This document shows, piece after piece, positions 9,534-42,252 of a DNA stretch of 44,060 bases. The DNA comes from Marinilabiliales bacterium (GTDB lineage Bacteria; Bacteroidota; Bacteroidia; Bacteroidales; BM520), in the NCBI GenBank assembly GCA_002869405.1, contig PKSY01000311.1:1-44060 (forward strand), written 5' to 3'. Positions within the stretch are counted from its first letter, which is position 1. Every line of letters starts with the position of its first letter. Made by a program: the position numbers and the translations under genes. The notes below the pieces were generated by a model, which ran no database searches, was not told the origin of the DNA, and worked only from the letters and a program-made list of their open reading frames with translations.

Positions 9534-10898
9534 CTATTTTGTAAAACCGTTAATGGTTGAAACCAATTCCTTAAAGTGTTCGCCACGTTCTTCAAAGTTT
9601 TTATATCGGTCGTAGCTGGATGCTGCAGGGGAGAGCAGGCAAACTCCCTGCACAGAATCTGATTCAGTAATAAAGGAAATACACTCATTCATACTATTGC
9701 ACGTGATAATCCGTGTTTCGGTAATTCCTGCGGATAATGCCAATTCGCTTATTTTTTTTCCCGCTGCACCGGTAGCCAAAGCTGTGATTTGCTGCCGCTC
9801 TTTCAGATATTCCACAAGTTGACTATAATCTATTCCACGGTCGTAGCCTCCCAAAATAATATATTGAACGTTTTCAAGTGCCTCCATTGCAGCTATTGCA
9901 GCTTCGGGTACTGTAGAAATTGAATCATTATAGAAAATCAGGTCATTAACTTTGCCCACATATTCCAATCGATGCTGTAAAGGGGTGAAGGTCACAAGTG
10001 CCCCGGAAGCCTGCCCTGGTGTGACTCCGCCAATAACAGCAGCAGTTACTGCCGCTGCAATGTTTATGAGGTTATGCGATCCTTTCAGTGTGCAGGAAGG
10101 ATTTTGCAGATGAAAGCCCGGGCCAATAATCTCTTCTTTGGAAAAATAGATCTCTGCACTGCGACTAGTTGATGAAATCCCAACAGCCGTTACTCCGGAT
10201 ACAGATTTTTCACACCTTTTTAATATTGGATCATCTGCATAATAAATATAGGTATCTCCTGCAGCTTGCCGATAGCAAAAATTCAGCTTTGCGTTTTTGT
10301 ATTTGGAGAAATCACCAAAATGATCCAGATGCTCCTGGAATATATTTAATAATATCATTGTTGACGGGGCACGACTGAGGATTTCCCCCTGATGTGCCGA
10401 TAGCTCCATAATAATTTCAGTGTCAGAAGTTATTTGACTTATAAGGTCAAACACCGGAATACCAATATTTCCGGCCAACAGAACTTTTCTTCCTGATTCT
10501 TTATAAAGATGATATAGAAGTGATGCTGTTGTACTTTTCCCTTTTGTTCCTGAAACTCCTGTGGTCTGATGGAAATACTGCTGCAGGAAAAGATCAGTTT
10601 GTGAAGTAAGTACCGTTTTTGATACTTTATTCAATTTACGCAACGGAATTCCCGGAGTCTTTATAATTAAATCAAATACCTCAAGATTCATAAAGCAGTC
10701 ATCTCCGGTATGAAAAACGATATTATTGTCCCTGATGAATTCATTATAACCTGTGATTTCGGGATTCTCATCCGCGATATGAATCAATTTTTCCGGAAAC
10801 AGGTGGCGAAAATAGCTATATGTGCTTTTTCCCTCGCGTCCACAGCCAAGGATAAGTATTTGACTATGTGATGATAGAATATCTGCTATTATGGTCAT
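9534..10898 (-). CDS. murD: MurD-family ligase, likely MurD2 (UDP-MurNAc-L-Ala:L-Glu ligase)
   Basis: LGCGREG, P-loop SGTKGKSTT, LAGNIG, ELS, EHLD, HRLE, NDSIST, GGYDRG, LLSPAASSYD...FEERG. 4-nt ATGA overlap with the upstream murL-like gene. Confidence 0.85.
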   Translation of the reverse strand: MTIIADILSSHSQILILGCGREGKSTYSYFRHLFPEKLIHIADENPEITGYNEFIRDNNIVFHTGDDCFMNLEVFDLIIKTPGIPLRKLNKVSKTVLTSQTDLFLQQYFHQTTGVSGTKGKSTTASLLYHLYKESGRKVLLAGNIGIPVFDLISQITSDTEIIMELSAHQGEILSRAPSTMILLNIFQEHLDHFGDFSKYKNAKLNFCYRQAAGDTYIYYADDPILKRCEKSVSGVTAVGISSTSRSAEIYFSKEEIIGPGFHLQNPSCTLKGSHNLINIAAAVTAAVIGGVTPGQASGALVTFTPLQHRLEYVGKVNDLIFYNDSISTVPEAAIAAMEALENVQYIILGGYDRGIDYSQLVEYLKERQQITALATGAAGKKISELALSAGITETRIITCNSMNECISFITESDSVQGVCLLSPAASSYDRYKNFEERGEHFKELVSTINGFTK

Positions 10899-12244
10899 CT
10901 GACTGCCTTTTTAAGTATATCGAATTCCTCCAATGACAAGTTGTGATTTTTATCAAAAGTATCCAAAACATCGCTTAACGCAGAGGTGACAGAGATTATT
11001 TTTTTATCAATCAAGTCGAGCACTACTGGAAGATCAGTCTCTTTGTAATTATTAATTATGTATCGCAAGGCAAAGGTTACCTCTTCAGCAGTCCCCACAC
11101 ACTCAAATGGTTTTGCCGGCCACAGACCTGCAAGTTCTTCAGTGGTTTTTACAAGTCCGGAGTCCTTAAAAAGATTCTTATTGAAGATTTTGGTTACATC
11201 TTCTTCAGGTAAAAACAGCGACAGCATTATTGCTGTAAACATACACTTCGGGCATTTACCGCACCAGGAATTTGTTTTGCTGCCCACATTGCAACTCCTG
11301 AATTCTGCATGATGATGCTTTAGCTGTGAAAAGATCTTTGCAATCTGGACTTCTGACAAAGGTCTCAACATGCTGAAATACCGAAGGTCTTCAGTGATAT
11401 AACTCTTTACATAGCCTCTGAAGTCGTTTTCAAATTCCAGACTTTTGCTGTACTGGTGGTTAACATGACTTCCGTGCACTGTGCTTTCATTTGCGCTTGA
11501 CTCATTGGAAAGAGCAATGTTCTTTCTGCCTGCAAAAAGTGCTGCCGGCAATGATGTGAACGCGAGTAAAGCAGAGAACGGAGTGTGTCCGTTTAAAAAT
11601 CCTTCATCATTGAGTTTAAGCATCAATGGATCCAGCCGGCGTGTGACAAGAGCACTGTTGTGTTTATCAAAACCTGCTGCTGCAATGGTGCCGGTTTGCG
11701 CTTCCCGGGGATTTATAATAAAAGGTGTGGCATTTTTATGTTTCAATAATTCCAGGGTTACAACAGAATCTTTTCCTCCGCCTACAGGAATGAGATATCC
11801 TGAACCATCTGAAATTTTACCCTTTTGATATCGTTCTCCGGAACTTTGGAAGATAACGAAATCATCTGCATCAGCAGCTATACCGTTAATATAAAAGAAC
11901 TCTCCCAGACCATTGAACATGAGTTTCTTCCACCATTCTTTCTGATTAACTGATATTTCACCACAACGAATATTTATTATCGGTGCACATGTGATTTTCC
12001 AGTAACTAATCATCTCCACTAAACCAATATGGAATATCATGTTTTTAAGCAGATCCGCAGGAATTGAATCCGTGATATCTTTAGGTGTATGGAATGTCAG
12101 GGAAGGAGAAAAGAAAAAATGCTCAGCAATGTTAAATTGGTAAATTACAGTTAAATCTTCGGGCGTTTTTTGTATGTCGAAGCCACTAAATGTGAATACG
12201 GGGTACTGATTTCTCAGATCTGTATAATGTTGATTATTATTCAT
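10895..12244 (-). CDS. murL: MurL-like UDP-MurNAc-L-Ala-L-Glu epimerase
   Basis: PP-loop-like GGGKDS, LNGHTPFSA, SNESSANE, VNHQYSKS, FRSCN, WCGKCPKC, KPFECVG; coupled to a murD homolog. Confidence 0.8.
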   Translation of the reverse strand: MNNNQHYTDLRNQYPVFTFSGFDIQKTPEDLTVIYQFNIAEHFFFSPSLTFHTPKDITDSIPADLLKNMIFHIGLVEMISYWKITCAPIINIRCGEISVNQKEWWKKLMFNGLGEFFYINGIAADADDFVIFQSSGERYQKGKISDGSGYLIPVGGGKDSVVTLELLKHKNATPFIINPREAQTGTIAAAGFDKHNSALVTRRLDPLMLKLNDEGFLNGHTPFSALLAFTSLPAALFAGRKNIALSNESSANESTVHGSHVNHQYSKSLEFENDFRGYVKSYITEDLRYFSMLRPLSEVQIAKIFSQLKHHHAEFRSCNVGSKTNSWCGKCPKCMFTAIMLSLFLPEEDVTKIFNKNLFKDSGLVKTTEELAGLWPAKPFECVGTAEEVTFALRYIINNYKETDLPVVLDLIDKKIISVTSALSDVLDTFDKNHNLSLEEFDILKKAVR

Positions 12245-12278
12245 AAACGGGGAATATTTTATCGGTTATTCCGTTGGC

Positions 12279-12286
12279 CAAATATA
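12279..12286 (-). promoter_or_regulatory. -7 promoter element (TATATTTG) for murL-murD2
   Basis: TAnnTTTG on the minus strand, 34 nt upstream of the murL ATG. Confidence 0.6.
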
Positions 12287-12357
12287 CGATTTTAGAATAA
12301 ACGTTAGTATATTGCAACCCAAACGTCATTTGTGAGTCAAAGCAGAAATTTTGTGTT

Positions 12358-31153: not shown

Positions 31154-34090
31154 CTATTTTTTCGGGATTAGACTTCTGATTAGTTTGAAGAGTGCATCTT
31201 TCTTTATTGGCTTGGATATATAACCATTGCATCCTGCAGACATGGCTTTCGACTCATCTTCCTCAAATCCGAAAGCTGTTTGCGCTATAATGATAACATT
31301 TTTTCCTTCTTCTCTGATTTTTCGTGTTGCATCATATCCATTGATATCAGGCATTTTTATATCCATCAGAATGATATCTGTATCTGGGTTATTATGAAAC
31401 GCTTCAATAGTTTGACGACCAGTCTTGGTGAAAATCAGTTCCTTAAATGTGCTTTCAAGTATGGAGCGGAAATATTCTATGCTATATTCATCATCTTCTG
31501 CGATAATTATTTTCAGGTCTTCCAGAGGTTCTGACGAATCTTCGTGTGAGAGATGAGTTTGTTCATTTGCAATGTCGTTGGCTGTAACATAGGGTATTGT
31601 AAAAGAAAAAACAGACCCTTTATTTACGCTGCTTTTTACCGAAATTTCTCCGTTTAGCATCTCAATATATGCCTTTGATATTGCAAGGCCTAAGCCCGAG
31701 CCTTCAAATACTTGCGTGTCTTCAATGTCTGCTTGTTCAAACCGGTTAAAGATAGCATCTATTCGGTTTTCCGGAATTCCTATCCCTGTATCCTTAACAA
31801 AAAACTCTAAAGTTTCTTTTTCTTTGAGCTTTGTGCAACCAAATGTAATGCTTCCTTTAGAAGTAAATTTTATTGCATTTTTAATAAGGTTTGTCAATAC
31901 ATTTTCTAGCTTTCGTTTATCAGTCATTATTTGAGAAACATCCTGCGAAAGTGAAGAGTCATAACTAAATTGCAATCCTTTTTTACCTGCCTCCGTTTCA
32001 AAGAATTCGAATTGCTCTTGTAAAACTTTATTAATATCCGTGATCTCATAAGATATTTCATCCTGCCCGGATTCGATTCTGGAGATACTAATAATATCAT
32101 TTATGGTTCCCAGCATACGCTGGCCGCTTTTTTCTATAATATCAATATAGTTCTCTTTTTCTTCACCTGATAGTGCCGGTTCTTTAAGAAGTTGTGTGAA
32201 ACCCATAATCCCATTCATTGGTGTTCGGATTTCATGGCTCATATTTGAAAGGAATGCACTTTTAAGGCGATCGCTTTCCTTGGCTTTTTCTAAAGCAATC
32301 TTCAGTTTTTTCTCTTTTTCTTTTAAAGAAGTTATATCCCTTAGAATATATACCATTCCCTGTGGCCATCCCAGAGAATCTCTTACTACATCTCCATTCA
32401 CCGAAATTTCATAAGTTATATCTCCCCCGGCTTGCATTTTATACTCCTGAACTCCCAAAGGTGTTTCGAACATTAATTTAGTATTCTCTTCAATCCGCTG
32501 TTTGTCTTCTTCTGCAATGAAGCTTCGCATGTTCATACCAAGTACATGATCTTTTTTAAGGAAAGGAAAAGTTTTTGACAAAGCGTCATTTACAAAAATA
32601 ATATCTCCCTCAAGGTTTGTTCTGACAATGATATCAGGCACTGTAGCGATAAGTTTGTTTGTTAGTTCCTGGTTTTCCTTTGCTGTTTTTACTGCTTTTT
32701 TTAATTTCTTATTGCTGTTTTCAAGCGCTGCTTCATAGGCTTTCTTCTCCTCGAGAAATTTTATTTTCATTAATGCGATTGTTACCTGTCTTGCCACCGA
32801 ATTCATGAATTTAAGCTCTATAACAGACCATTCACGTTTCTGTAAAATCTGGTTTAGTGTAAAGACATAAAACTCGTTATCATCAAATGCAAAGGGATAC
32901 CATAAAAGACTTTTGATTTTGAATTTCTGATGTAATAATATGTGCGAATTATCCTGTTTGTATACAGGATCTATATCATCAAAATGACTCGAAAGGTGTT
33001 TTTTTGTATTAAGAATTCTGGTAAAAGGAACTTTATATAAATCAAGTGAGTAATTATCTTTTGTGGGCTCGATATCTTCATAACCTTTTCTAATCCATTC
33101 TGCCAGTGCGAATATCTGATTTTCCTTAAAGGAAATCCTGTATATAAGCGTTCTGTCTACGTCGAGTGTTTCAGCAATTATCCTGTTTGTATTGTCGAGG
33201 AGCTCGCCGGTATTATTGTTTTGAATAATAACTTCAGCGATTTCATTAAGTGCTTCAGAGAATTTTAGCTGGGTTTTAATCTCTTCCTGCCTGTTTATCT
33301 GGTCTGTGATATCTCGGCATATTACAATTGATTGCTGGTGTTCTCCATGCTCATCAAATTGAAATCTGGCATTATCTTCCCGCCAAATATAATGCCCTTT
33401 TTTATGCTTTACTCTGAATGTATACTTAAAAGATTCCTTTTTCTCTTCAATTGCCTTGTAAATGCTTTTGAAAAGATTATCTCGGTCTTCCGGGTGTATG
33501 ATATTATAAATTTCATCAGGTCCTCGGCCAACATCCTCATTTTTAGTATATCCGAGCTGATTTACATACGATTTAGAAACATATATAATCTTACCTTCTT
33601 TATTTGTAACGAAAATTCCGTCAGATGTGTTTTCAGCAATTAGTCTGTATTTTGACTCATTATCCTCGGCAATTTTGTGCGCCACAAGTAACTCCTTTTC
33701 ACTTTTCTCTAATTTGGTAATATCATTAATATAAGTAAGAAAATAGAGTGGATTCTCCTCTTGATCTAATAGAAGAGTTGATGATACATCAGCATGTATG
33801 ATTTTACCGCTTTTATGAATGTAACGTTTTAATAATTTTATTTTTCGTTGATCAGAGTTACGGGCTTTTTCAATTTGATTATAGCTGATTTCGATATCTT
33901 CAGGATGTGTGACATCTTTTATCTCCTTAGATAAAAAATCGGTTTTTGTATACCCAAAGAGATTAATCATCTCCGGATTCACATCAAGAAATTTACCATT
34001 TAATCCAACAATACAAATTGCAACATTGGCGTGCTTAAACGCTATTTCAAAATCAACATTCAAATGGAGGTCAGGGTTGTTTTCAGTCAT
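31154..34090 (-). CDS. Cytoplasmic PAS-PAS-GAF-PAS hybrid histidine kinase / receiver
   Basis: THPED and IHPED PAS motifs, GAF-like region, SHEIRTPMNG, NLIKNAIKF, DTGIGI, GSGLGL, REC with LMDIKMP. No TM segments. Confidence 0.93.
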   Translation of the reverse strand: MTENNPDLHLNVDFEIAFKHANVAICIVGLNGKFLDVNPEMINLFGYTKTDFLSKEIKDVTHPEDIEISYNQIEKARNSDQRKIKLLKRYIHKSGKIIHADVSSTLLLDQEENPLYFLTYINDITKLEKSEKELLVAHKIAEDNESKYRLIAENTSDGIFVTNKEGKIIYVSKSYVNQLGYTKNEDVGRGPDEIYNIIHPEDRDNLFKSIYKAIEEKKESFKYTFRVKHKKGHYIWREDNARFQFDEHGEHQQSIVICRDITDQINRQEEIKTQLKFSEALNEIAEVIIQNNNTGELLDNTNRIIAETLDVDRTLIYRISFKENQIFALAEWIRKGYEDIEPTKDNYSLDLYKVPFTRILNTKKHLSSHFDDIDPVYKQDNSHILLHQKFKIKSLLWYPFAFDDNEFYVFTLNQILQKREWSVIELKFMNSVARQVTIALMKIKFLEEKKAYEAALENSNKKLKKAVKTAKENQELTNKLIATVPDIIVRTNLEGDIIFVNDALSKTFPFLKKDHVLGMNMRSFIAEEDKQRIEENTKLMFETPLGVQEYKMQAGGDITYEISVNGDVVRDSLGWPQGMVYILRDITSLKEKEKKLKIALEKAKESDRLKSAFLSNMSHEIRTPMNGIMGFTQLLKEPALSGEEKENYIDIIEKSGQRMLGTINDIISISRIESGQDEISYEITDINKVLQEQFEFFETEAGKKGLQFSYDSSLSQDVSQIMTDKRKLENVLTNLIKNAIKFTSKGSITFGCTKLKEKETLEFFVKDTGIGIPENRIDAIFNRFEQADIEDTQVFEGSGLGLAISKAYIEMLNGEISVKSSVNKGSVFSFTIPYVTANDIANEQTHLSHEDSSEPLEDLKIIIAEDDEYSIEYFRSILESTFKELIFTKTGRQTIEAFHNNPDTDIILMDIKMPDINGYDATRKIREEGKNVIIIAQTAFGFEEDESKAMSAGCNGYISKPIKKDALFKLIRSLIPKK

Positions 34091-34131
34091 TCCTTTAAGG
34101 ATAAAAAACGTCTTTAAAAAAGCTTTATATA

Positions 34132-37100
34132 TTATGCGTCAATAATAAGGTTGGTGATTAGCCCCATAAATTGATCCTTTTGAATCGGTTTTGCTATATA
34201 TTCCGCAAATCCGTTATTCAGGCATTTATCCCTGTCGCTTGACATTGCATGCGCAGTCTGTGCAATAATTTTTGCCTTTGGATTAATTTTGAGGATTTCC
34301 TGTGCTGCCTTATAACCATCGAGAATCGGCATTCTGATATCCATTAACACCAATTCAATATCAGGATGATCTTTGTATATGTTAATTGCTTCAATACCAT
34401 TTCTCGCCCAATATGTTTTTAAAGGAATATTTTTAAACAACTCTTCCAAAAAGAGGTTATTGACATAATCATCTTCTGCAATGAGAAGTTCTTTTCCTTT
34501 CAGTAATTCCCAATCAGGTTTCGTAGATGAAATTTTATTGTGTTGGTCTATCTTTGCCGGAATAAATGGTATTTCAATTGTAAAGAGGCTTCCTTTGCCG
34601 TGTTGAGATTCAACATTAATAGTGCCATTGAAATTATCTATAATACCTTTGGTGATTGCAAGTCCAAGACCGGTACCATCATATTTTTCTTCATTTGTTT
34701 GGTCTGTTCGCTGAAATCGTTTAAAAATATTGGAAATATCTTTCCCGTCAATTCCAATCCCGGTATCAGAAACCTGAATTATTATTTTATCATTATTGAT
34801 ATTATATCCAAATTCAATCTTCCCTTTGTGTGTAAATTTCAGCGCATTACTTAAAAGGTTTGTCAGAATCTGTTTTATTCTCTCGGGATCGGAAAGAATA
34901 GTGACTTTTTGATGCTTTTTGGGGATATTGAGTATGATATCAATCTGATCTTTGCCTTTTTTCTCTTTGAGTTTATTAAATGTTTCATATAACTCTGTAA
35001 AAATAAGATCCAGACGGCAGGGTTTTTCTCTTAATTGTAATTCTCCTGCTTCAATCTTTGAAACATCAATAATGTCGTTTATGAGATTGAGCAATTGCCG
35101 GGAACTGCTTTCAATGATATCAATATATTTATTTCGCTCTTTTGCATTAAGCTTACTATCTCTTAGTAAAGCTGCAAAACCAACAAGGCCGTTCATGGGA
35201 GTACGGATTTCATGGCTCATATTGGCGAGAAACTGATTTTTATAGATGTTGGCTGCTTCTGCTTTTTTCTTGGCTTTCAGGAGCAACGAATCAGTATGTT
35301 TCTTTTCTGTGATTTCTGTAACAATCCCTGTAACAGTAATCCGATCATTATTTTTAGCAATAATCTGTCCGATATCCTGGAACCAAAGGTAATTACCATT
35401 TGCATGCTGCATTCGGTATTCACATTTGTATAGTGGTTCTTCACCGTCGATATGCTGCCTCATGGCATTCATGGCTGCCTCATGATCATCAGGATGCACA
35501 ATTTTCATGAAGTCTTTATAAGATGTGAAATCTTCTTTTCTGCGACCAAGAAGATCTGTTTTGTTTTTACTGTATGAAACGAAGCCATCCGGAAGGCGGA
35601 GTTCCCACCAGGCCATATTTCCTGCACTTAGTGCTTCGGAGAGTCTGATTTCTGATTCCCCGAGATCTTTCTCTGCTTTTTTTAAACTTGTGATATTCAC
35701 AAAGGTAATTACTACTCCTTCGATTCTTTTTTCTGCAGTTATAAAGGGTAAAATTCGCTTTAAATACCAGTTGCCTTCTCCATCTCTGATCTCCTTTTCA
35801 GAAGTCTGAAGATTCTCAAGTGCTGTTTTAGAATCATTAATCAACGATTTCCTGGTATCATCGTCAAATTCTGAAGCAAAACTGGATATACTTCTTCCAA
35901 TATCTGATTCTTCAAGATTAAAAAGATGTTTTATTGCCGGCGTAAATTTTCTGATATTCAGATCAGTATCAAGAAATAGTGTTCCAATATCTGTACTGTT
36001 TAGAAGGTTTAAAATGTCATTGTTGAGGTCTTCAAGCTCTTTGTTTTTTTCCTGAAACTCAGTATTAACGGTATAGAGCTCCTCATTAACCGACTGAAGT
36101 TCCTCATTGGAGATTTGTAATTCCTCATTGGATGACATAAGTTCTTCATTGGAACTTTGTAACTCTTCATTACTTGTCTCGAGCTCCTCCACGACGTTTT
36201 GTAATTCGGAACGATTCTCTTTTAGTTCATATTCAAGATCTTCTATTCTTTCCTTAGAAAAATTGGAAATATCATCATTCGATAAAACAATCTCTTCACT
36301 GGAATTTTCCTGTTTGCTGAATCCAAACTGAATCATATATACCTGGTCGTGAGTATCTTTATGCTCAACCTTTTCAAAGTAAAGATCCGTTGCAGTTGTT
36401 TCTTCATTAACTGTATATGTGAGATTCTTTATTGTGATTGGTTTGTCACTCTGTTCTAACCTTCTAACACCATTGCGTATAATGGTAGAAAGCTCCAGAC
36501 CAACCATGTCCAGCAGATTATTGGTAAACGTTCCGTCAACCTGTCTGAACCAGTTCTTGAATTCACCTAACATGAAATTGACCGTAAAAGATTTATCAAT
36601 AAACACTGTTACAGGAGCATGTTTTTGACTAAGATATTTGTAATAAAATAATTCACTCTGTTTACGTCCTGCCTGACTATTCTTTGCATAGGTGGTTAAT
36701 GGCTGCTCCGGAATATGTTTGTTTTTATACAAATACGTTTCTTTATCATCATTCCTGACCAGGCGGGTGTTTTCAAAGAGGTTTTGGAATATTTTGTATT
36801 TTGAATCAACGTCCCTGAAAGATTTTGAAACGCTTCCAAGTGATTCGCTACTTCCAAGAAATAGAAAACCATCTTTATTCAGGGCAAACTGAAATCCCGA
36901 TAGAATTGCTTTTTGGGTGGAATTATTAAGATATATAAGCAGGTTCCTGCATGAAATAAGATCTACTTTTATGAAAGGCGGATCGTTTGTTAGGTCATGG
37001 TATGAAAAGACAATTTTCTCCCGGATTCGCTTAATGATTTGAATCCTGTCGCCGGTTTTTAAGAAATATTCCTGTAGGTAAGGTTTTTCTATCTCCAAAA

Positions 37101-38184
37101 AGGTATTTACCGGATAACTACCCATGCTTGCCTGCTGAAGCGCTTTTTTATCAATATCTGTGGCAAAAATCTTAAAATCAATCCCCGATTTGTTATTTCG
37201 GATGTAATTATCAAACAGAAGTGCAATAGAATAAACTTCTTCACCGCTTGAGCATCCCGGAATCCATATTCTGACATCACTTTTATTTCTCTTTTTCTCA
37301 CATATTTCAGGTATGACCTTCGTTTTTAGTATTTTAAATGCTTCTGTATCTCTGAAAAAACTAGTTACACCAATTAGAAATTCCTGCTTAATTGCACTTT
37401 TTTCTTTTTCACTGGTTTTTAACAGTTTTAAATACTCCTGCAGAGATTCAATATTGTGAAGACTTAATCTCTTTTCCAGTCTCCGAAGCAAAGTGTTGGT
37501 TTTGTATTTTTTGAAGTTTACACCTGTATGGCGATGAATCTCTTCAAGTATTGCGTTAAAAACCTTTTCATTGCTCGAGATCAGATCTCCGGAACTTTCA
37601 AGTTGCAGGTTTTTTCCTGTAAACTGAACGATTTTTTCAGCCAGCATCCCCGGCGAAAGGATAAAATCTGCGAGGTTAGTCGATATTGCCGAGTTTGGCA
37701 TACCGTCAAACTGAGCTGTCTTAGGATCCTGAACCAAAATTGTTCCTCCTGCCTCTTTGATGGTTTTGATACCCCGGGAGCCATCGGAACCAGTACCTGA
37801 CAAAATCACTCCGATTGATTTATCTTTGTATGATTCACCCAGCATATGAAAAAGTATGTCAATGGGAAGGTTTAGATGGTCTTTAGGCGCTTTATCAAAA
37901 AGGATAAACTTATAATCCTTTATGCCAATATTGGTGTTTCTGTTATTTAAATAAACGCAATTAGGCTTAATCTTTTGATTATTCTTTGCCGTGTAGATAT
38001 GCATGCCTGTGTGCTTGGCAAGTAATTCAGGCATAAGACTTTTAAAGTCGGGTGATAGATGTTGAATAATGACATATGCAACTCCTGTATTATCTGGGAT
38101 ATGGTCAAAAAAACGTTGAACTGCTTCGAGGCCTCCGGCTGATGCGCCAATACCTACGACATAAAAATCATTGTGGTTACTCAT
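34132..38184 (-). CDS. CheB-CheR-PAS-histidine kinase-receiver fusion protein
   Basis: CheB GIGASAGG / IQH / GTGSDG; CheR [30 protein letters not shown]; heptad coiled coil; PAS; [10 protein letters not shown]; REC with LMDIRMP. Start set at MSNHND. Confidence 0.93.
   Translation of the reverse strand: [1350 protein letters not shown]
36065..36189 (-). repeat. 21-bp period coding tandem repeat (xNEELxx heptads)
   Basis: Encodes [42 protein letters not shown]; TCATT recurs every 21 nt. Confidence 0.85.
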
Positions 38185-38283
38185 AATCATTCTGCCTAGA
38201 TGTGGTTTTACCAAATAAAGATACAGAATTTTTTATATGTAAGTCAATGCATATATTTTTTACGAAGAAAAACTGTAAAGGGG

Positions 38284-40007: not shown

Positions 40008-40364
40008 TTAAGATTTTTTATGATTTACTGACAGCATTATCAATATTGCAGATGAGAACAATGCCAACGCTGTGAATGCCGGAACAGCCGGTATTATTCC
40101 TTTTTCAGCATAATAACCTGCAGCATTTATTACAGAATAAACCACCATGGCATTTGCCATGATGAGCATATATTTATATTTGATTCTTAAGTATAGTATA
40201 CCTCCTGCAATGCATAAAATTGCCATCAGGAACTCCGAAAACAGATGGAATGAAATTTCTGATTTCCCTTCATTTATATCGCCGGATAAGAGCAGGAAAA
40301 CCCACATTCCAAGAATGGCTATTCCCAGAATAATAGAATAGATAGGGATAATTTTATTTATCAT
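40008..40364 (-). CDS. Small 4-TM hypothetical membrane protein (118 aa)
   Basis: C-terminal part of the 270-aa track ORF, starting at MINKIIP (alternative start 40373); four hydrophobic helices; overlaps the upstream stop. Confidence 0.7.
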   Translation of the reverse strand: MINKIIPIYSIILGIAILGMWVFLLLSGDINEGKSEISFHLFSEFLMAILCIAGGILYLRIKYKYMLIMANAMVVYSVINAAGYYAEKGIIPAVPAFTALALFSSAILIMLSVNHKKS

Positions 40365-42252
40365 ATTGTTCATAGCTGTGTCTTGTATCGTTTCCGTTTG
40401 TATCATTGAAAATGCCAACTCCTTTAAAATTATTAGGGACATAAATGCGATATCCAATCTGCATCTGATGATTGGCTGCTGTTGTAGCACCCATAGACGG
40501 AGACTGACTGTTTTGTTGGTTTTTATACCAATGATAGCTATCACTTCCCTCATTATCAGAAAAGCTTCCGATACCTGATAAATCTCCAATCCCCACACTT
40601 CTGTTTCCAAAGTGGTATTCATCATCTCCGGATTTTTCAAGAAAGATTCCTGCTGAGAAATCTCTGCCGCAGCCAAAACTCTGAGTAATCCTCTCTTTGA
40701 TTGCTTCTTTGTTATAGATGTCATCACCGCTACTCTCGTAAAATCCTGCCAGCGAAAAATGTGCGGCATATCCAAAACTGTGAGAGCTGGCATTATAAAT
40801 ATCATCTCCAGCTTCATCATAAAAAATACCTAACCCGAAATAGTACGATCCCCCAATGGAAAAAGATCCTGCTGAATACTTGTCATTGCCTGAATAGTCA
40901 ATAAAGATTCCGGTACCACCTGCAAGACTATGTCCGTCTGTAGCTTCTGCCCAACGACCTCTGGCTGCCCCAAGTACAAATCCCGGTGGGTTTTGCAAAT
41001 GGGAATCCACTGAATTATAATTGTCATTTCCTGCTTTGTCGTAGAGAATGCCTACTCCATGAGTGCCTCCAAAACCCATTGAATACCCGCCACTGCTGTA
41101 CTGATCATCCCCCGAAAGATCTGCCAGTATTGCCACACCAACATATGCCGATGCATGCCCGTTATCATTTCCGCTAAAGTATAGGTCATCTCCACCTTTG
41201 TCATAAACCATGGATGATCCATACAGCGCATAACCCGGTCCGCAAGTTTTTGAATAGTACCGGTCATTACCCTGAAGATCAAATAGTGCTGAGATTCCGA
41301 GAACGGCAGATCCAGGACTTTCTGCATTATAGATATCATCCCCGGAAAGGTCAATGACAAAACTAAAAGGTTGCGAAAAATATGATGCAGAGGCTATATT
41401 GCCATGATAATAATCGTTTCCGCCTAAGTCTATAATTAATAACTCACTACGCGCTGTTGTGTCAGCCTGTTTGCCATTAATACTGATTTTACCAAGGGAA
41501 GTATTCAGCCTGCATCCCTGAAATTTTTCCGGGACTGAAACAGAAGTCAGTGAAAAACAATTATTGAGTTTCTGTGCAATAACTCTGGTAGCATATGAGA
41601 GTTTTTTGAGATCTGCTTTGTTTATTATGTCAATCGAAGAAAAGGATGTCATCTCCTTTATGCGCCATGGTTCTTGTAAAAAATCAAACAGCGATTGCGA
41701 AATTGTAGTATCTGTGATATCTGTTAGAGCCATCAAGGGCAGGCAATATTCATCAAATATCATTTTTGCCTCAATCGAGGCTGATAAGAATTCGATGGTA
41801 TATTTTTGTATTTCAAAAGGTAGTTTATCCCATTCTGCCCGCGGCTCGATAATTATTTCGGTCTTTGATATAAAGCCCGCTATTTCCTCATGATTTTTAA
41901 AAGAGTGCTTTTGCTTAATTCCGGATAAAGGAGGACCATAACCTCCGGCACCAGAGCCAAGTATCTGGAAAGCATAATGAAATAACTCTGAAGGCGATAA
42001 CGCTGAGTTATTAACAGATTTTGCGGCAGATTTTGAGAAGGAGCTTAGCTCTCCGGGATGACTGAAAAGGTATTTATGCAAAGTTGTGAGGGTATTGATT
42101 CCCTGAATGGCAGTCATATATTCTAAGTCCAGTGCCGGGAGCTCAGGGGTTTTCTCATTCTCTTTATTATCAGATGAGTCTATCTCCTTGTTACCGCAAC
42201 TCACATTAACAGCAATCACTGTGATAAAAAGCAATGCCAATAAGATTCGCAT
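40354..42252 (-). CDS. Lipoprotein with ~12 D-x-x-G-(N/D)-D-x-Y repeats (putative Ca-binding beta-solenoid)
   Basis: Lipobox NVSC; repeats such as IIDLGGNDYY, VIDLSGDDIY, LFDLQGNDRY separated by Gly-rich spacers. Confidence 0.8.
   Translation of the reverse strand: MRILLALLFITVIAVNVSCGNKEIDSSDNKENEKTPELPALDLEYMTAIQGINTLTTLHKYLFSHPGELSSFSKSAAKSVNNSALSPSELFHYAFQILGSGAGGYGPPLSGIKQKHSFKNHEEIAGFISKTEIIIEPRAEWDKLPFEIQKYTIEFLSASIEAKMIFDEYCLPLMALTDITDTTISQSLFDFLQEPWRIKEMTSFSSIDIINKADLKKLSYATRVIAQKLNNCFSLTSVSVPEKFQGCRLNTSLGKISINGKQADTTARSELLIIDLGGNDYYHGNIASASYFSQPFSFVIDLSGDDIYNAESPGSAVLGISALFDLQGNDRYYSKTCGPGYALYGSSMVYDKGGDDLYFSGNDNGHASAYVGVAILADLSGDDQYSSGGYSMGFGGTHGVGILYDKAGNDNYNSVDSHLQNPPGFVLGAARGRWAEATDGHSLAGGTGIFIDYSGNDKYSAGSFSIGGSYYFGLGIFYDEAGDDIYNASSHSFGYAAHFSLAGFYESSGDDIYNKEAIKERITQSFGCGRDFSAGIFLEKSGDDEYHFGNRSVGIGDLSGIGSFSDNEGSDSYHWYKNQQNSQSPSMGATTAANHQMQIGYRIYVPNNFKGVGIFNDTNGNDTRHSYEQYDK

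Follow-up and report, generated by a model that had tools for sequence, protein, structure and literature searches.

Can a bacterium whose genome lacks a recognizable glutamate racemase (MurI) still build the D-glutamate (D-Glu) residue of its peptidoglycan, and with which enzymes? This question is raised by two overlapping genes in a 44,060-nucleotide contig (PKSY01000311.1) of a Marinilabiliales bacterium belonging to the order Bacteroidales (assembly GCA_002869405.1); we refer to this whole stretch of DNA as the window. The upstream gene (10895..12244, minus strand) encodes a 449-amino-acid (aa) homolog of MurL, and the downstream gene (9534..10898, minus strand) encodes a 454-aa MurD paralog, MurD2. 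The pair is very probably the source of peptidoglycan D-Glu in this genome, which lacks MurI, and we have considerable confidence that murL and murD2 constitute a single operon producing this residue in place of MurI and without free D-Glu.

A pair of this kind is known from Xanthomonas oryzae, where it consists of MurL (XOO_1319) and MurD2 (XOO_1320) (PMC8788868), and the same pathway is treated in another review (PMC5808125). XOO_1319 converts L-Glu to D-Glu in the product of the ligase, in one direction only, at the cost of one ATP, which is released as AMP; the reaction is proposed to pass through an adenylate. Both reactions, the ATP-to-AMP stoichiometry, and the L-to-D direction have been shown for enzymes from X. 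oryzae, Micromonospora, and Salinispora (PMC8788868).

We infer the same function for the two proteins of the window from their homology and fold, the specificity residues of the ligase, the linkage of the two genes, and the phyletic pattern. The MurD2 ligase would attach L-Glu to the cell-wall precursor, and the MurL homolog, a QueC-like PP-loop enzyme, would spend a second ATP adenylating the alpha-carboxylate of the attached L-Glu. Adenylation would render the alpha-proton removable, the L-Glu would then be flipped to D-Glu, and the pair would substitute for MurI. As in X. oryzae, an epimerase homolog and a MurD paralog lie side by side in a genome without murI or dat, although in another phylum.

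MurI likewise provides peptidoglycan D-Glu, and MurI and MurL occur in complementary sets of genomes within the order. MurI is a cofactor-independent, reversible racemase of the free amino acid, with a fold and mechanism unrelated to those of MurL. MurL, in contrast, acts on a nucleotide-peptide, spends ATP, and works one way (PMC8788868).

D-Glu enzymes elsewhere in the genome

The genome comprises 348 contigs and is 96.55% complete, with 2.2% estimated contamination. No protein in it reaches the cut-off of the glutamate racemase model TIGR00067 (best match 35 bits versus 146.65) or of the D-amino-acid transaminase model TIGR01121 (best match 63.6 bits versus 277.45). A second, canonical MurD is encoded between mraY and ftsW on contig C312, in the division and cell wall (dcw) cluster. 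This protein scores 406 bits, contains the P-loop GANGKTTT, and has Asp/Lys/Lys at the specificity positions discussed below. The initial annotation, made from the window sequence, had suggested that this lineage replaced or supplemented the canonical route, and both words apply: MurI is replaced, while MurD is joined by a second ligase in this genus and no longer exists as a full-length gene in others. Xanthomonas is not known to have a canonical dcw MurD, whereas the present genome keeps one. Our guess is that the dcw MurD kept in the genus is a D-Glu-using ligase that salvages free D-Glu.

Distribution of MurL and MurI

Among the 61 nearest relatives, this genome included, 27 encode only MurL, 33 only MurI, none both, and one neither. 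A sample of 301 genomes of the order, in which MurL (E <= 1e-30) was found 113 times and MurI 178 times, divides in the same manner, with 112 genomes encoding only MurL, 177 only MurI, one (G535) both, and 11 neither. MurL and MurI are thus almost mutually exclusive in the order. In the families tallied, MurL is nearly all-or-none (for example 3/3 versus 0/3), with family f80 at 2/3, and the pair is present in all four other genomes of the genus and in 11 of the 12 other family members examined. The MurL model had no match at E <= 1e-10 in 400 other genomes of the phylum, only seven of which belong to the same order.

Related genes were also sought more widely. In contigs of species genomes, 588 of 599 pattern matches encode a relative; the best 80 of these 588 come from Bacteroidales-type metagenome-assembled genomes (MAGs) from sediments, lakes, rumen, and gut, five of which submitters labelled as Bacillota. 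A library of representatives at 50% identity contains 1146 clusters matching MurL at E <= 1e-30, many of them fusions of approximately 900 aa, in both domain orders.

With 113 of the 301 species sampled from the order carrying the pair, in conserved synteny and with native composition, a one-off import is contradicted. Within a large Bacteroidales clade the pair is native, old, and vertically inherited, not a recent acquisition.

The five Bacillota-labelled MurL-MurD2 contigs are L106 and L110 (Erysipelotrichaceae- and Clostridia-labelled), L099, L103, and L111. Three form their own clade (support 100), the other two do not join it and are not resolved as a Bacillota group, and the tree requires three label changes; transfer or mis-binning could be responsible. 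A separate observation concerns G425, a genome of the same order that is 98% complete in 10 contigs. It contains no MurL, no MurI above the cut-off, and no MurD at E <= 1e-50, its only MurD trace being a match to the MurD C-terminal domain at 1.4e-19.

The MurL homolog

The 449-aa protein matches NF041275, the NCBIfam model for Xanthomonadales MurL, with an E-value of 8.8e-66 and 222.2 bits, which agrees with its initial identification as MurL. Residues 13-397 align with model positions 6-394 of 447 (389 positions), so that, like Xanthomonas MurL, the protein covers nearly all of the model. It has no significant match in the Pfam copy used, which lacks PF26298 and PF26299, two families found as precomputed Pfam annotations on its homologs. 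Many close homologs are labelled UDP-N-acetyl-alpha-D-muramoyl-L-alanyl-L-glutamate epimerase by JGI, while NCBI labels close homologs as hypothetical proteins of Bacteroidales or Lentimicrobium. The five motifs initially read from this protein (GGGKDS, NGHTPFS, SNESSANE, NHQYSKS, and CGKCPKC) are all present in its translation. The first of these, a PP-loop-like motif at residues 155-160, is invariant in 66 of 66 homologs, as are Cys318, Cys328, Cys331, and Cys334.

An AlphaFold2 model built from 66 sequences (pLDDT 92.9, pTM 0.92) has QueC (2PG3) as its best Foldseek match in the PDB, at E 3.3e-4. The model is predicted to fold like QueC and QatC, members of the PP-loop class of ATP-using enzymes. 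We compared it with QueC (2PG3, 3BL5), QatC of the QatABCD system (9Y01, 9Y02), and Cap9 of type IV CBASS (9NTO). Residues ~147-446 superpose on QueC, and nearly the whole chain (10-414) superposes on QatC. In common with this family, the MurL homolog has a PP-loop-like motif rich in glycine and, towards its C-terminus, a cluster of Cys residues, but it is only 11–16% identical to these enzymes, and its GGGKDS motif departs from the classical PP-loop motif, SGGxDS. Its predicted substrate also differs from that of QueC, being a UDP-muropeptide instead of a deazaguanine.

At the sequence level the relationship to QueC is faint. The Pfam QueC family (PF06508) matches the window protein at E 0.1 with 12.5 bits, below the cut-off of 22, and weak matches occur in 16 of 66 MurL homologs (best E 0.0063), falling on the Cys region (residues 295-336). 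The MurL homolog therefore shares the QueC fold but lies outside the QueC sequence family. A sequence search of the PDB with the MurL homolog brought up no solved MurL structure, with nothing at E <= 1, and MurL goes unmentioned in a 2026 survey of the QueC family. QueC adenylates a carboxylate, and a QueC-like fold would therefore fit the proposed AMP-forming activation of the Glu alpha-carboxylate.

The MurD2 ligase

The 454-aa protein scores 302 bits against the MurD model TIGR01087 (cut-off 211.95) and spans model positions 1-440 of 441, indicating a full-length three-domain ligase; MurD chains in the PDB match it down to E 1.6e-46. It was initially described as a MurD homolog outside any dcw cluster with GTKGKSTT as its P-loop, and both observations stand: the motif occupies residues 117-124 of the translation, and the surroundings of the pair in the window are housekeeping genes, the dcw cluster lying on another contig.

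Three positions have been experimentally implicated in the choice between L-Glu and D-Glu. The E197D/R358K double mutant of X. oryzae MurD2 switched from L-Glu to D-Glu, and the K319T mutant of E. coli MurD gained acceptance of L-Glu (PMC8788868). In a HMMER alignment, the window ligase has Glu189 at the position of E. coli D182, Ile327 at that of K319, and Arg354 at that of K348, with Ser and Tyr at those of A414 and L416. These positions were mapped via E. coli MurD, not via X. oryzae MurD2 itself, and E. coli numbering in 8V8W equals that in 1E0D plus one. As judged from this alignment, the window ligase carries the published L-Glu determinants at all three positions, sharing Glu and Arg at two of them with X. 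oryzae MurD2. The three-domain architecture, the P-loop, and the HRLE and NDS.T motifs are held in common with E. coli MurD, while the substitutions D182E, K319I, and K348R set the window ligase apart.

The same division runs through an alignment of 130 MurD-type open reading frames (ORFs) from fetched loci, 102 of them D2-type and 28 dcw-type. The D182 column contains Glu in 101 of 102 D2-type proteins, the single Asp among them belonging to the Oscillospiraceae-labelled L103, and Asp in all 28 dcw-type proteins. At the K319 column, D2-type proteins have Ile (101/102, with one truncated row) and dcw-type proteins Lys (28/28); at the K348 column these are Arg (101/102, again with one truncated row) and Lys (28/28). 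The P-loop reads GTKGKSTT in 97 of 102 D2-type sequences versus G[STA]NGKTTT in 28 of 28 dcw-type sequences. In a tree of 71 ligase ORFs, for which rows shorter than 380 aa were left out and every fourth of loci L036-L113 was kept, the D2-type and dcw-type proteins split with an SH-aLRT support of 100. The window ligase is further distinguished from canonical MurD both by the location of its gene outside the dcw cluster and by its membership in a separate clade on a long branch.

Linkage and fusion of murL and murD2

In 68 of 80 related loci, murD2 comes directly after murL in the same orientation, with the two genes touching or almost touching, and in six they are fused. The remaining six loci have no MurD ORF; four of these are ended by the end of the contig, and two (L082 and L108) have a full flank. 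The fusions encode proteins of approximately 900 aa and are located at L046:3920-6709, L069:485-3214, L077:3986-6673, L094:3989-6679, L105:3986-6709, and L106:3986-6769; fusions in the representative library include P0122, P0148, P0224, and P0231. Conserved neighbors accompany the pair as well. Of 99 related loci, 74 have an AlgH-like gene beside murL, on the opposite strand among the loci listed, and 20 have a SpoU methylase gene 3' of the pair.

Alternative explanations

An unlikely alternative is that the dcw MurD carries the main route, acting on free D-Glu from an unrecognised source, such as a YgeA-like racemase, a class IV aminotransferase, uptake, or wall recycling, and that the pair serves only as an auxiliary or back-up. 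The dcw MurD is indeed full-length, with Asp/Lys/Lys and a normal score, and the genome does encode candidates for two of these sources. Its sole Asp_Glu_race protein, of 228 aa, is YgeA/asp_race-like (TIGR00035, 211 bits), and a 278-aa class IV aminotransferase has the D-amino-acid transaminase TIGR01121 as its best NCBIfam match, at 95 bits for the whole protein. However, the aminotransferase occurs in 13 of 27 relatives with MurL and in 17 of 34 without it; this equal frequency leaves it unlinked to MurL, and we rejected it as the D-Glu source. The racemase was rejected because the same-genus genomes G401 and G402 contain no Asp/Glu-racemase-like match at E <= 0.001. Moreover, 112 of the 113 MurL-bearing genomes of the order lack MurI, and 11 of the 27 MurL-bearing relatives showed no full-length dcw MurD, with only a stub in the six slots inspected.

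It is very unlikely that the proteins, though related to MurD2 and MurL, perform a different chemistry, such as ligation of another amino acid, or amidation or other modification of the stem peptide, with MurI missing for some other reason. The shortfall of the MurL score against the equivalog cut-off would accommodate this view, as would the size of the family (1146 clusters) and the fact that the closest folds, QatC and Cap9, are reported to catalyze a very different reaction, protein-nucleobase conjugation. Against it stand the L-Glu state of all three experimentally implicated ligase positions, the near-universal linkage of MurL to a MurD-family ligase, the near-perfect exclusion between MurL and MurI, and the end-to-end match on the MurL model.

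An artefact, in which a contaminating or recently transferred island in the MAG combines a MurI absence and a MurL presence from different organisms, is hardly credible despite the 348-contig assembly and its estimated contamination, given that the pair lies among core genes on a 44-kb contig of matching GC content, recurs in 4/4 other genomes of the genus and 11/12 of the family, and retains its synteny with the AlgH-like gene.

Our preferred reading, in which MurL and MurD2 make the D-Glu residue in place of MurI, nevertheless has several observations to contend with. At 222 bits, the MurL score falls well short of the 700-bit equivalog threshold of NF041275, which is tuned to Xanthomonadales; it therefore supports membership in the wider MurL family and not in that equivalog, and the identity of the MurL function would rest on this broader family. 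The positions corresponding to P433 and F435 of X. oryzae MurD2 are Ser and Tyr in the window ligase, and Ala or Ser plus Tyr in its relatives, instead of Pro and Phe. These two residues do not define chirality in X. oryzae, since the P433A and F435L mutants stayed specific for L-Glu (PMC8788868). The intact dcw MurD, with D-Glu-type residues and a score in the same range as in MurI-bearing relatives, has no known D-Glu supply, and its retention is left unexplained by our model.

Two genomes also depart from the pattern of exclusion. G535 encodes MurL as well as MurI, and its MurI gene (G535:C321:3-731, L164) sits on the edge of a contig 2.8 kb long. G412, which is 73% complete and the sole member of the window's family without MurL, encodes MurI on G412:C100 (L163) and a partial D2-type MurD at a contig start (G412:C13:19-993, L127). 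On its MurI contig, only 380 nucleotides match same-genus genomes, at 68% identity, and the GC content of this contig is similar to that of the G412 MurD2 contig. Contamination or true co-occurrence could account for these two exceptions. Finally, most of the sampled genomes are MAGs, and the complementary pattern may derive from one or a few ancient events instead of many independent ones, since the MurL-bearing genomes appear to form a single clade, in which kin do not count as independent cases. The dcw MurDs of MurL-bearing genomes form a single group of 14 rows on the tree, with support 98.

Truncation of the dcw murD

The state of the dcw murD varies among the 61 relatives. Those without MurL that have a complete match each encode one high-scoring MurD (384–419 bits), while 14 relatives with MurL, including this genus, encode both a D2-type and a dcw-type MurD. 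G456 has a dcw-type MurD and a MurL at a contig end. Only a D2-type MurD was found in G405-G411, G416, G431, G441, and G452 (11 of the 27 MurL-bearing relatives being without a full-length dcw MurD), and G414 has a D2-type MurD plus a fragment.

When the slot between mraY and ftsW was inspected in six of these genomes, all six contained an ORF of 181–192 aa corresponding to the MurD C-terminal domain (model positions ~263-441, 89–170 bits). These stubs are located at L158:6122-6673 (G405), L159:1559-2107 (G408), L126:1517-2062 (G414), L155:1965-2513 (G431), L156:6452-7030 (G441), and L157:6197-6754 (G452). In the four that align that far, the stub starts at an internal Met common to the full-length proteins. 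Two stubs retain the substrate-binding Lys, while the other four have a different residue in its place. Between the G405 and G408 stubs dN/dS is 0.15 at a dS of 2.2, which is near saturation, and other pairs are mostly saturated in dS. Because only a C-terminal stub remains in the dcw slot of these six genomes, the working ligase must be the MurD2 encoded elsewhere in the genome.

A stub search across the order, among the 150 of 398 matches listed, added eight genomes with open frames of 183–192 aa, all of which encode MurL. G625, considered as a MurI-bearing genome with a truncated murD, was rejected because its frame is ended by the contig end. Family f77 includes both states, truncated in G431 and full in G567 and G682. 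On the best MurL tree of the 27 relatives the truncations require four changes, of which well-supported branches force only one.

These states can tentatively be arranged as a stepwise takeover, a scenario that we consider possible but rather less than even in probability. MurL and MurD2 would have replaced MurI in the ancestor of a large Bacteroidales clade, the D-Glu-specific dcw MurD would next have become dispensable for catalysis, and it would then have been cut, probably more than once, to a C-terminal stub conserved between mraY and ftsW, with this genus as an intermediate. If this is correct, part of what selection preserves in dcw MurD is a function of the C-terminal domain other than catalysis, with a role in a Mur-ligase/divisome assembly or in D-Glu sensing as examples, and the full-length dcw MurD of this genome would serve such a non-catalytic role, perhaps along with D-Glu salvage.

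Implications for the known range of the pathway

The pathway itself is known, and JGI annotation already names MurL in Bacteroidales, although the papers searched do not mention it there. The taxa previously given for MurL and MurD2 are some Gamma- and Alphaproteobacteria and rare actinobacteria, with orthologs of low similarity noted in a fungus, cyanobacteria, and an amoeba; the list does not include Bacteroidota (PMC8788868). The string "Bacteroid" does not occur in PMC5808125, and a full-text literature search brought up no other paper dealing with where MurL or MurD2 occurs.

The two proteins are far more common in this order than the searched literature states: ~38% of the Bacteroidales species sampled (113/301), including gut, rumen, and sediment lineages, apparently obtain their D-Glu by this route. 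The route was proposed as a narrow-spectrum antibiotic target on the grounds that it is confined to few bacterial genera (PMC8788868). Given its spread in Bacteroidales and the more than 1000 clusters at 50% identity, an inhibitor of this route would not be narrow-spectrum. Metabolic reconstructions that read the absence of murI in such MAGs as a gap or as D-Glu auxotrophy are misleading. The Bacteroidales also offer a series of murD states, comprising genomes with both ligases, genomes in which only the C-terminal domain of murD is left, and genomes in which murL and murD2 are fused, and this series amounts to a natural experiment on the handover of an essential step between enzymes.

Locus organization and other features of the window

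The two genes overlap by the four bases ATGA (10895..10898, minus strand), which hold the murL TGA stop and the murD2 ATG start, as the initial annotation had recognized. This overlap suggests translational coupling of murL and murD2 within a single operon. The promoter motif that the initial annotation had noted was located as well: TATATTTG (12279..12286, minus strand), which begins 42 nucleotides 5' of the murL ATG, matches TAnnTTTG, taken here to be the -7 promoter consensus of Bacteroides and other Bacteroidota. In the window as a whole this motif is not enriched (48 sites observed versus 48.5 expected). Within 150 nucleotides 5' of the start, it is found in 55 of 102 MurL ORFs, a set that includes kin and one duplicate locus, versus 383 of 5000 (7.7%) random 150-nucleotide windows; in the MurL relatives a spacing of 40–47 nucleotides from the start is frequent. 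A sigma-70 promoter scan gave no matches beyond chance (10 versus 8.9 in shuffled sequence), and a terminator scan gave nothing convincing directly 3' of murD2.

The motif lies in a divergent intergenic region of 113 nucleotides (12245..12357) between murL, on the minus strand, and an AlgH-like DUF179 gene, on the plus strand. This gene is accompanied on the 5' side of murL by genes for IspH and RecF, and the 3' flank of murD2 contains genes for a SpoU methylase, HU, a TPR protein, and Fmt. The GC content of the murL-murD2 region, 0.38–0.40, is the same as that of the window overall.

The part of the window with the lowest GC content (0.34–0.36; 31154-38214, minus strand) encodes two large hybrid sensor kinases. 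One, of 978 aa, has the arrangement PAS/GAF-HisKA-HATPase-receiver, and the other, of 1360 aa, consists of a CheB methylesterase and a CheR methyltransferase fused to PAS-HisKA-HATPase-receiver. Two further ORFs on the minus strand (40008-40820, 270 aa, and 40354-42252, 632 aa) overlap; neither has a Pfam match at E <= 1e-5, and one or both may be spurious.

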